A DNA stretch of 63,789 bases, counting the filler, from Platydemus manokwari (taxonomy: Eukaryota): NCBI GenBank assembly GCA_037951405.1. It is 6 parts of 6 records of this genome, joined end to end, with 100 filler letters (N's around TTAATTAATTAA, not from the genome) between each part and the next. Parts side by side here need not be neighbours in the genome. Positions count along the whole stretch, not along the records: positions 18,789 to 31,827 come from JBBMOY011869165.1; 5 more parts are not named here. One strand, 5' to 3'. A program made the position numbers and the translations under genes. Shown in pieces: positions 25,612-29,430 of this stretch (positions within the stretch are counted from its first letter, which is position 1; every line of letters begins with the position of its first letter). The notes beneath the pieces are model-generated. The model worked only from the letters and a program-made list of their open reading frames with translations. It made no database searches and had not been told where the DNA came from.

Positions 25612-25935
25612 GTAGTTTAATTTATAAGAATATTCATTTCATCTGGAACATATCAAGACTCGTTGAAATCAATTGTAAGATCTATTGATAAATACAGTTT
25701 ATGAGAGATCCATATAGTATGGGAAGAATTTAAAATCACAAAACTATTCTCAACGACATGATTTAAACTATTTCTCAAACTTATAATACTTGGGCTTAAC
25801 TTTTGTGTGATTTTCTTTAAGTAAAACAATTATGTGTATTGATTGATTTCATAAATCCTTTACCAATATTTTCAAGCAAAATTTTTGAAAATTGGAATCA
25901 TGATTAACATGAAAGTTCATTAATATAATGTAATA
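25612..25935. repeat. Upstream/promoter module of the peptide gene, copy A (inverted copy B at 29117-29430, direct copy C at ~31291-31635)
   Basis: Blocks such as tcaagactc(g/a)ttgaaatcaattgtaagat..ttgataaatacagtttatgagagatccatatagtat, aaacttataatacttgggcttaactttt and catgaaagttcattaatataatg are shared with the reverse complement of 29117-29430. Confidence 0.9.
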
Positions 25936-26049
25936 TGTCATAATATTTTTTTAGTATTAAAATATTATCGCTTTATGAGGCCATTGCAGATATTTTATTC
26001 AATCTTCAAGCTAGTATAGATCAATTAGAGTACTGAACACACACATGAA

Positions 26050-28800
26050 ACGATAGAGTTACGAAATTTCAAATATTGCCTTTATCCTTCATTACATTGC
26101 ATAGCTTAATAGAATTCAATAAATCAAATAAATCAATACTTATCACAAAATCAATTCATCTGAAATATTTTTAACAATCAATAATTAATCTCAATAATCA
26201 ATTTTCCATTTTATCTTTCATTAAAATATCAAATATATAATCTTTAAAATCAAGATGTCCTCTATTAAATGTGATCAAGTAATTGACATTGCCTCATACA
26301 CTGTTAATAATATTTGCGTAATTAAAAGCATTTATAACTAAATTATTATCAACCAATAATCTTCGCATTCATCAAACAGATTTCTCAAATATTATATTTT
26401 TAAAATTCATCTCGAATATATAAACTCATAAATATATCTCATAGTTTTTGATGTGTTCGATTTGAATAATAACGGCAATATATTGATTTGATATGTCAAA
26501 TACAGTGATTTCATATTGATTAATAACAAATTGAGAGTAAAGGGCGCATTTGATAAATTATTTTATTCCATGAAATATTCTTTATTATATTTATACTGCA
26601 ATCTGTTAAACTATTTTGTCATCACCATTTTATTGTTTGAAATTATTCGTTGCGATAAATCCATTTCTAATTTATTAAATAAAATTTGATTTATTTTCTT
26701 AATTTTTTGTAACATTAACTCTCTTGAATTTCGACTTGAATAAATTTGTCGTACAATAATAATAAGCAATAGGGTGTTAATACATTGATCTCTGCTTCAC
26801 TTAGTCGATATTATATTTATGTATGTTTGTGTAAAAAATGTTGAGTTTAAATTCTGAAACATATGCCATTGAGGATAATTATTGAATGCTTCACGTAATT
26901 TAAGATATGTATCATAAGGAGTATCTTGATTGTTTGTTGTGATATCAAATTGTTATTTATTTGCTGGTTAAGTATGGTTATTTAATCTTCATTGATCTTG
27001 TTGGTCTCTCATTGTTTCGAGATTCAGTGCGATTAACTGATGCTCGATGATATTGTCAAAATCTCTTTCCTACACAATTGGACTTGGCTTTGATGAATTG
27101 GATTGATGAATCGAAGAATGATGGTTTCGGAATTAATAGTTCCTAAGTTTTTTGTGTCAAATTTGCAAAAAAATTTTACCTCATTTCTCGTTTAGCTCTA
27201 GTCAGAGCGTTAAATTCGGCGTGGTCGCCAGTAAAAAGATTACTAGTTTGCATAAATATTTTATTTTAATTAAAAATTACACCGTTTGTTGTTTAATATT
27301 AAAACAAATCTTATTTTTTATCTAACTCCTATACTCAGGCATCTTTGTTACATTTGTTTGATCTAACATTTCTAAATTATTTTTAAAATCATTTTTATTT
27401 GTAATTGCATTTTTAATTCCCAAAATAATATTTTATAAATTATCTGTAATCTCAATATTATTTCCATCTCCAGTTTATGTAATTTATTTTTATCATCTAG
27501 AGTTATGTAAAAAATATTTCAAATTTGAAAATCTTGGTTATTTATATCTATTATTTTTAAAGTTGGAAAAATTAAGGATGCAGGTAATGCTTTATGATTT
27601 GGTCTATATATTTTTGGTTCAATATACCCGGGTTTCGCGTCATTTTCTTTTATATATTTCATTAATTCAACATTTTTCCTCTACAGCTTTCAAATTTTTA
27701 TTTACAGTTTCAAACGCTAAATGTTGTTTTCTCTCAATAGATTTTAAATTTTAATTTCTTCCCTTAATTGCTAATTGGTGTTTTTAATTTACATATATAT
27801 ATATATATATAGATAATCACTATTAAGTATAAATTATAGTTCATTAATTCTAATTATATTTTTGAAATTATCTAATGATTTGTCTTTTAGGTATTTAAAT
27901 ATGGTATTAATAAACTATATTTCTTTCAATTAAAAGCTTTAGAAGATAATATATTAATGGATGAAGAAATTAATAAAGCTAAAGATATTATAAAAGATGT
28001 ACGTGAAGAAATTTTAAAGATTAAGAATAATAATATAAAATTAGAAAATAAAATTCAACAAGAAGCAAAGAAGGAATATAAGAAAGAATTAAAAGAAAAC
28101 TATCGTGAGGAGTTATGGAAGCTCAAGTCGATACCATTGGTACGTAATAAAATAAAATTTATTTCATTTCATAAAATTAAAAAAAATTTATTTCATTGAA
28201 GGAACCTCGTTCAACTTCGTTCACATATATGTGTTTCTCTTTTCAAAATCATTAATTAATTTTGATAATTGTTTTTTATTATAATTTTTACATCCTTTCA
28301 TTTTATTTGTAATATCAACTATTATTTATGATGTTGTTCTCCTAATATTTAATCATAATCAACTTTATTATGTTGTAAATATGATTTTGATTTAATAAAA
28401 AATTGTTTTTTTTTATTATTTCATTTGGAACTTAATTTTTAAACATTCCTAATTCATTTCCTATAAATGGTCTCAATGTATTTCTCACATCATTTCATAT
28501 TTCATCAAAATATAAAATAAACTCTATAAATAATGAATCTGTATCACCAAAATGTATTTTATCTTTACATAATTTATCTTACACATCATAAACAAATTTT
28601 ATTGAAGCTTTTTTCTAATGAGATGCTGCTATTTGTGGAGTGAATATCTTTGCTCTTTCAAAGGTTAATTTAGATGTTATTTAATTGAAATTCTCTATCT
28701 GTTAAAACTATTCTTATATTCAATCAACTCCTTATAATCTACGGTGTAACTGTTTGCGGGATTCAGACATTTATAATAGAAAAATTATATTCATTGAAAA
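26050..28800. mobile_element. Decayed Polinton/virus-like island with a pPolB fragment and several intronless ORF relics
   Basis: Minus strand ~28660-28370 reads KIFTPQIAASH*KKASIKFVYDV*DKLCKDKIHFGDTDSLFIEF...RPFIGNELGMFKN*VPNEIIKKTIFIKSKSY: motif C (GDTDS at 28534-28551), LGxFKxE and KxY. Further disrupted ORFs lie at ~27253-26100 (-), ~27780-27550 (-) and 27957-28199 (+, coiled-coil-like). Confidence 0.75.
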
Positions 28801-29116
28801 TCCTTTGAAAATTTGAAATATTGATTCAGTAAATTCTACATTGATTTTCATGCATAGTAATTGCATTTTTATAGTTTTATTTTTATAGTATTTATATTTC
28901 TAATCGGCGAGCTTCTTCTTTTTTCACAAGCAAAAAACACGCTTCCCATTATATTTTGGATACCGCTTATAATAGGCAAAACACGGTAAGATGAGATATT
29001 TTTATTAGTTTTAATATTCTAAATGAATTTGAAAAATAAATTATTTGAGAAATCTGCTTGATAAATAATTTATATTTTACATAATTTCATATAAATCATA
29101 GTAAAGAGAAAACCTT

Positions 29117-29430
29117 TATAACATTATATTAATGAACTTTCATGCCAATTGTGATCCCAATTATAAAGGATTTTGCTTGAAAATATTGGCAAAGCATTTA
29201 TGAAATCAATCAATACACACAATTTTTTTACTTATGGAAAATCAGATAAAAGTTAAGCCCAAGTATTATAAGTTTGATAAATAGTTTGAATAATGTCGTT
29301 GAAAATAGTTCTGTGATCTTCAATTCTTTTCATACTATATGGATCTCTCATAAACTGTATTTATCAATTAATCTTACAATTGATTTCAATGAGTCTTGAT
29401 ATGAATGAATATTTTTACAAATAAAAATAC
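29117..29430. repeat. Inverted copy B of the peptide-gene upstream module
   Basis: The reverse complement aligns with 25612-25935. No peptide CDS follows it. Confidence 0.9.

Follow-up and report, generated by a model that had tools for sequence, protein, structure and literature searches.

LTRs reused as promoters are transposon-derived (exapted) promoters. Concerning Mavericks (Polintons), one insertion in the promoter region of the salmon growth-hormone gene is mentioned in the available part of PMC8097293, and a literature search carried out at the level of listings retrieved no direct precedent for the co-option of a Polinton TIR as a host promoter. Such a co-option was proposed in a preliminary description of a locus of the flatworm Platydemus manokwari, in which two inverted copies of a module of about 320 bp, one of them adjoining a peptide gene, were read as the TIRs of an internally deleted Polinton. 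The other reading offered was an inverted duplication of the gene that had lost its coding sequence, with an unrelated viral insert.

The window analyzed here is a stretch of 63,789 nucleotides (filler included) from the GenBank assembly GCA_037951405.1, whose positions 18789-31827 correspond to JBBMOY011869165.1 (13,039 bp, 23% GC). The five closest matches to a dynein exon in another part of the window come from flatworms (66-74% identity), which makes a flatworm host most likely. The assembly that was searched comprises 911 Mb in 1.99 million contigs, and L-numbers (such as L002 or L116) designate other loci of this assembly that match the module or the pieces located between its two copies. 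The two arms are very probably paralogous copies of the region upstream of the peptide gene, arm B most likely being what an inverted partial copy of the gene unit has left and the interior consisting of host DNA and of mobile-element pieces that were probably inserted separately.

The peptide gene family and its upstream module

An intact intronless ORF (25204-25590, minus strand) encodes a predicted secreted peptide of 128 aa. This product has a predicted signal peptide of about 20 aa (delimited by eye), an acidic propiece (pI 4.8) ending in R-N-V-R and a mature part of 81 aa (pI 12.0, nine basic and no acidic residues) made of 10-aa Gly/Ser/Pro/Arg repeats. Judged by composition and by eye, this is the layout of linear cationic antimicrobial precursors: signal, acidic propiece, basic cleavage site and cationic mature part. 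The paralogues L119, L203, L204 and L205 keep the signal and the propiece, their repeats being replaced by Tyr/Gly-rich or Trp/Arg/Gly-rich ones. ORFs of 128 to 148 aa are present in four of the 16 aligned copies and two further long ORFs in L203 and L204; the family includes at least six long ORFs, about a dozen broken copies and a conserved upstream region of about 300 bp. Database searches found no homologue of the peptide, the Pfam search assigned it to no family, and four repeat motifs of the family had no match in the literature search. It could be a family of defence, mucus/adhesive or egg-capsule peptides. The value left in this locus is an uncharacterised family of flatworm prepropeptides without database homologue.

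Numerous copies exist of a unit made of about 1 kb of upstream DNA, the short ORF and its 3′ flank: some are in tandem (A and C), one is inverted (B) and others are on other contigs. The start or the coding sequence has been deleted in B, L117, L009 and L121; loss of the coding sequence through deletion is recurrent (L117, L009 and L121). With tandem and dispersed paralogues, common 5′ and 3′ flanks, and both intact and broken copies, the family forms a birth-and-death cluster. Copy C (31001-31708, minus strand) is a decayed tandem paralogue that consists of a coding remnant without ATG and of its upstream region. Its module (31291-31624) is in direct orientation relative to A, with the decayed coding region attached, and the copy aligns with A at 73% over 592 columns.

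Arm A (25612-25935, minus strand) covers the proximal part of the sequence upstream of the peptide gene, and arm B (29117-29430, plus strand) is an inverted paralogous upstream region devoid of initiator, ATG and coding sequence. That they are inverted copies of each other was correctly recognized at the outset (86.4% identity over 324 columns, E 1.9e-109), as was the stop of their similarity near the ATG: the alignment stops 22 nt short of the ATG (25590). Inside the arms, 26367-26442 and 28991-29066 form another inverted pair (86%), absent from the earlier description.

The arms had been presented as bounded TIR units, which does not agree with the comparison of the paralogues, since similarity crosses both ends of both arms. 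On the A side, outward matches run through the ATG and inward matches reach 26540-26820. The distal upstream host DNA (25936-26819, minus strand) is common to paralogous loci: 25936-26820 is matched by eight other loci, among which L116 matches to 26820, L009 to 26676, L118 to 26228, L013 to 26198, and L003 and L121 to 26137. The inner limit of arm A, at 25935, is a small deletion common to A and L002. On the B side, the arm keeps matching L003, L117, L008 and L118 inward to about 29090, and similarity to other copies resumes at 28991-29066; this inner continuation of copy B (28991-29116, plus strand) is distal upstream DNA that matches 26367-26442 in inverted orientation as well as L009, L116 and L088. 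Aligned with the upstream region of L009, arm B falls into two blocks, some 420 bp having been deleted between them.

The truncation point of copy B abuts a dispersed-repeat piece (29445-29571) also found at 23704-23949. Two candidate reconstructions of this side were rejected. The sequence 29444-29475 does not represent distal 3′ flanking DNA of the gene brought back by a deletion, as it is a dispersed repeat present in at least 39 other contigs among 40 scored. A single inversion of 27.76-30.54 kb, hinted at by L116, would make B a direct tandem copy; L009 matches 30249-30808 without break and L116 is therefore the rearranged one.

The probable core promoter straddles the outer limit of arm A. 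A TATAAAT box (25620-25626, minus strand) is located 36 nt before the ATG. A likely initiator (TCATTT, 25598-25603), lying 11 nt outside arm A, and a short 5′ UTR (25591-25611, minus strand) are also outside the arm and conserved in paralogues, and the predicted transcription start, at about 25601, is just beyond it. Furthermore, the GTAGTTT end of arm A is the reverse of the AAACTAC spacer that separates the TATA box from the ATG in paralogues. Since this spacer is common to paralogues and the initiator is outside arm A, the outer "terminus" cuts the likely core promoter. The TATAAAT box is found in 12 of the 16 aligned copies, eight of which lack a full-length ORF in the available sequence, and the ATG is at the same spacing after the TATA region in 12 of the 16. 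The claim that the TATA box is intact in copy A alone is thus true within the window, but the box is not special to the intact gene. Likewise, the TATA box of copy B is indeed changed, but the TGTAAA previously given was an antisense reading, the sense being TACAAAT. The TATA box at -36 from the ATG and the initiator-like motif suggest that the module has promoter activity.

The search of the genome with arm A retrieved 18 matches, distributed over 16 contigs, and no candidate was left unscored. Fifteen of them run on into the peptide coding sequence or a remnant of it (A, C, L002, L003, L006, L007, L008, L009, L118, L011, L119, L120, L121, L017 and L122). The copies at Polinton ends that had been anticipated were not found on these contigs, which are short (0.4-6.5 kb), so that Polinton genes located farther off would escape notice. 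In L117, the module is joined straight to the 3′ flank of the gene, the TATA box and the coding sequence being deleted; in L013, the match is cut by the contig end; arm B is the sole match of the 18 without any gene part. A transposon-derived promoter requires a dispersed element family with gene-free copies, and what was found instead is a set of matches of which 16 of 18 adjoin gene parts.

Sixteen copies of the module were aligned (L013 and L121 excluded), and a tree was built from 13 of them over 259 columns, L007, L017 and L122, which align over part of the columns, being left out. In this tree, B groups with A, L002, L003 and L117 in a starred clade (96/91), which is nested (95/95) among gene-linked copies. 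L002, which may be an allele of A, is 96% identical to arm A, L117 93% and B 89%. A and B form a clade of their own in 2% of bootstrap trees, and the AU test does not reject this grouping (p 0.11). Whichever tree holds, the link between module and gene is older than the separation of A and B.

Sequence pieces between the arms

The interior had been depicted as one virus-like island. We found four kinds of sequence, dispersed independently. Among its 3181 bp, 1012 bp (32%) are host upstream DNA, 1457 bp (46%) are Polinton-type pieces, 341 bp are a retroelement piece and 268 bp are the end of a DNA transposon; about 100 bp around a TA microsatellite match none of these classes. Each piece of this mosaic has its own dispersed copies and its own limits.

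Beyond the host DNA, the interior successively contains: (i) piece W (26820-26988), a stretch from within a decayed Polinton-type family of high copy number, present in at least 35 contigs (40 scored among 171 candidates); (ii) piece X (26987-27327, minus strand), an internally deleted end of a gag/zinc-knuckle/RT/RNase H retroelement of very high copy number (at least 33 contigs among 40 scored), whose longer copies match gag, zinc-knuckle, RT and RNase H in Pfam; (iii) piece Y (27321-27785), from the interior of the Polinton-type family, which elsewhere lies between W and a packaging-ATPase region; (iv) a relic (27889-28217, plus strand) of the ORF which, in this family, is convergent with the gene of the protein-primed DNA polymerase (pPolB); (v) a C-terminal fragment of pPolB (28235-28725, minus strand) with a GDTDS motif, carrying stops, frameshifts and an internal deletion, whose block is present in at least 39 other contigs (40 scored among 252 candidates); and (vi) piece V (28721-28988), one end of a pogo/Tigger-like DNA transposon of about 1.6 kb found in at least 39 other contigs (40 scored among 155 candidates), with a TIR of 26-34 bp, TA flanks in two of the four copies examined and a weak match to a Tc5-type HTH.

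The presence of a pPolB fragment between the arms, already noticed, is confirmed. Its identity rests on its relatives within the genome, because the fragment itself has no match in Pfam, PDB or viral contigs; a Pfam search with X at stops, covering the six frames of the interior and four decayed pPolB copies, also gave no pPolB match. The fragment is 60% identical over 121 aa (E 3e-37) to an ORF of L126, which is itself 58% identical (E 3e-44) to an ORF of L107 that passes the PF03175 cut-off. Compared directly to an ORF of L101, it shows 34% identity (E 2e-11).

The Polinton-like nature previously attributed to pPolB and to the ORF relics also stands, as a single decayed family comprises W, Y, the 27889-28217 relic and pPolB, which are colinear in L126, L162 and L127. 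Of 25 loci, 12 have Y connected with an ATPase region. In one of the three loci read, this region carries a Walker A motif and a Pox_A32 match that remains below the cut-off (E 8e-4); pPolB is thus linked, in this family, to an A32-like packaging ATPase identified by a weak match. Family sequence extends into the ATPase region and continues for no less than 1.5 kb past it, its true ends not being reached. A sharp limit in L159 (position 82) was considered as a family end and rejected, being the truncation of that particular copy. Integrase, capsids, TIRs and TSD were not identified in the decayed copies that were read. In 25612-29430, no integrase, ATPase, protease or capsid gene was detected in 18 frame readings searched against Pfam with X at stops, and the matches between 63 ORFs from pPolB-bearing loci and the contig carrying this region are limited to two pPolB relics. 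The second of these (23351-23753, minus strand), more diverged, lies about 2 kb outside the inverted repeat, and a pPolB piece therefore easily falls between any two host repeats here.

Origin of the inverted repeat

Linkage of the module to coding sequence, its continuity past the ends of the arms and the mosaic interior carry the explanation by duplication within the gene cluster. B would have arisen as an inverted copy, partial or full, of a unit of the A clade; it would then have been stripped of the initiator and all that follows it, as well as of 420 bp of upstream DNA, its TATA box decaying. At least three events, and probably four, would have brought mobile-element pieces into the space separating the two upstream regions, which face each other head to head. 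Both duplication and deletions may have been driven by unequal or inverted recombination within this repeat-rich cluster, the apparent TIR pair being a probable by-product of the duplication. We infer this order of events from the arrangement of the copies. The earlier suggestion of an inverted duplication with loss of the coding sequence is thereby supported as regards the duplication, not as regards a single unrelated insert, which is in fact several separate fossils. Against this explanation, it should be noted that an A+B clade is not rejected by the AU test, and that the Polinton-derived share of the interior (1457 of 3181 bp) includes pieces W, Y and pPolB of one family, which could be a single rearranged insertion.

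Such a single insertion is possible but rather doubtful. The Polinton-type pieces (W, Y, the convergent ORF and pPolB) would have entered together between the head-to-head copies and would later have been inverted and deleted, possibly aiding the rearrangement. Their common family and their location within 2 kb speak for it. However, W and Y are inverted relative to the pPolB block when compared to the order in L126 and L162, and about 3.5 kb are missing. Moreover, L116 has the same upstream-W-Y junction (83-90% identity) without X and without the pPolB block, and the family is dense enough to have left another relic 2 kb outside the repeat. Such an insertion would refine the explanation by gene duplication rather than compete with it, the origin of the arms being the same.

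A far more remote proposal is that the module was the end of a long-extinct Polinton-like element, inserted before the expansion of the gene family and copied with the gene ever since, B still being a duplicate. Nothing supports it positively; very old element ends would simply leave no free copies. However, B is the sole gene-free copy among the 18 matches, the module has no end motif, and the conserved spacing from the TATA box to the ATG looks like that of a native core promoter.

The original proposal, that an internally deleted Polinton was inserted 22 nt upstream of the ATG and that its left TIR serves as promoter, is extremely improbable and already largely ruled out. The length of the arms does fit that of Maverick TIRs (46-1447 bp in the available part of PMC8097293), their mutual orientation is inverted, and pPolB and other Polinton pieces lie between them. 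However, the module occupies the same upstream position in paralogues with as little as 67% identity and is therefore older than this locus. Similarity continues across the supposed termini, and no TSD of 5 or 6 bp exists for end positions 25605-25615 and 29426-29444 (11 x 19), in agreement with the preliminary description, although an old TSD could have decayed. The ends, GTAGTTT and AGTATTT, contain one AGT each and lack the (AG)3 or (AGT)2 motif, whose definition is drawn from vertebrate Mavericks (PMC8097293, available part). As for the Polinton pieces inside the repeat, they come from the interior of the element and disagree in orientation, and host DNA and the pogo end lie between them and the arms.

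Within the Polinton-type family, whose true ends lie beyond the loci compared, the module is present in none of 51 pPolB-bearing loci (169 kb), and the 63 ORFs from such loci have no match in the remaining 15 contigs that carry the module (37 kb). It is also absent from C444443, a near-complete pPolB/ATPase/protease contig of a distant subfamily (22 of 24 kb read). In 25 ATPase-side loci, which do not reach the true ends of the family, there is one module match of 46 nt (E 0.004). The preliminary description had itself named a module confined to the vicinity of peptide-gene paralogues as the outcome that would count against its proposal, and it is beside such paralogues that the module lies.

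Finally, an assembly artefact or chance deserves hardly any credence, since, despite a fragmented assembly (1.99 million contigs), the arms match with an E value of 2e-109 but at just 86% identity and with indels, and a contig from a sequencing run, maybe the source data and not independent, spans 28650-29224 over the V/B junction.

Overall, the duplication of host upstream DNA around fossils of mobile elements has most probably drawn the false outline of an element, which calls for caution in screens based on TIR plus pPolB in repeat-rich genomes.

Comparison with known systems

Birth-and-death clusters of secreted-peptide genes restricted to one lineage are exemplified by the myticalins of mussels. 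As far as the available part of PMC5577615 describes them, these resemble the flatworm family by being multigenic and taxonomically restricted, with a conserved signal and propiece and a hypervariable cationic mature part. The flatworm family also includes many pseudogenes and partial duplicates. This likeness is one of layout, and the mature part of the flatworm peptides differs by its tandem 10-aa repeats. Furthermore, the propiece is N-terminal in the flatworm family and C-terminal in myticalins (same part of PMC5577615). Apidaecin-type precursors also have a signal peptide, an acidic spacer and repeated Pro/Arg-containing units; the likeness has an atlas score of 0.80, below the lead threshold, with no alignment and no Pfam match.

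The Polinton-type family is comparable to the degraded Mavericks reported in the available part of PMC8097293: (i) pPolB with a DTDS-type motif and an A32-like ATPase occur in the same family, and (ii) copies are broken by stops, frameshifts and insertions, without discernible TIRs in those read here. Unlike these degraded Mavericks, 25612-29430 is not one element: its arms are host DNA, and it has neither TSD nor (AG)3/(AGT)2 ends.

As in exapted promoters, a repeated module is located directly upstream of a start codon. Unlike them, this module is copied along with its gene and is not dispersed in free form.

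The prepropeptide family and its duplicated surroundings

The peptide gene at 25204-25590 (minus strand) belongs to an uncharacterised flatworm prepropeptide family, with further members at the loci L002, L003, L119, L203, L204 and L205 of the same genome. The upstream region, the predicted signal and the acidic propiece are conserved among its members; their tandem 10-aa repeats are hypervariable and can be Ser/Gly/Arg-rich, Tyr/Gly-rich or Trp/Arg/Gly-rich. No homologue of this family was found in databases. The 3′ flank of the gene carries a tandem duplication of approximately 175-280 bp (24594-24766 and 24871-25044, 95% identical), and the paralogues L003 and L007 harbor a single copy of this segment.

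Our analysis also revealed that another locus, L116 (contig G000:C1179767), is a rearranged segmental duplicate of the window's peptide-gene cluster, with blocks in direct (26357-26893 and 27321-27677) and inverted orientation (30107-30533 and 20559-23120). A second small gene (21793-22017, plus strand), with a predicted GT-AG intron of 54 nt (21804-21857), likely encodes a secreted peptide of about 56 aa. Its paralogue in L116 keeps both the frame and the splice sites.

Host genes and dispersed repeats

Other parts of the window carry ordinary host genes: an axonemal dynein heavy chain is represented by exons at 33620-41379, and exons recognised by eye belong to a likely G-protein-coupled receptor kinase (45981-51690) and a likely GPCR (16183-17374). 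Parts of the window other than the one with the peptide gene also share dispersed repeat families (2375-2600, 40213-40430 and 48860-49086; 12203-12287 and 52102-52186). A 74-bp sequence found at 31745-31818 and 1-74, and also at the ends of loci L066, L174, L181 and L190 (copies 94-99% identical to each other), shows a very high depth in sequencing run X1 and is frequently located at contig ends. A young repeat of very high abundance, at which the assembly breaks, probably ends in this sequence.

Polinton-type sequences

A second relic of pPolB, the protein-primed DNA polymerase, lies outside the inverted repeat (23351-23753, minus strand) and shows about 67% identity to the family copies. Elsewhere in the genome, an open pPolB frame of 1213 aa (G000:C1601075, L130:3801-7439) adjoins a cadherin exon. 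Furthermore, the 24-kb contig G000:C444443 (loci L164, L129 and L163) is densely packed with long ORFs that lack introns; among them are pPolB (above the PF03175 cut-off), an ATPase-like ORF and a match to an adenovirus-type protease. This contig is a Polinton-type sequence that has decayed little and represents a distant subfamily.
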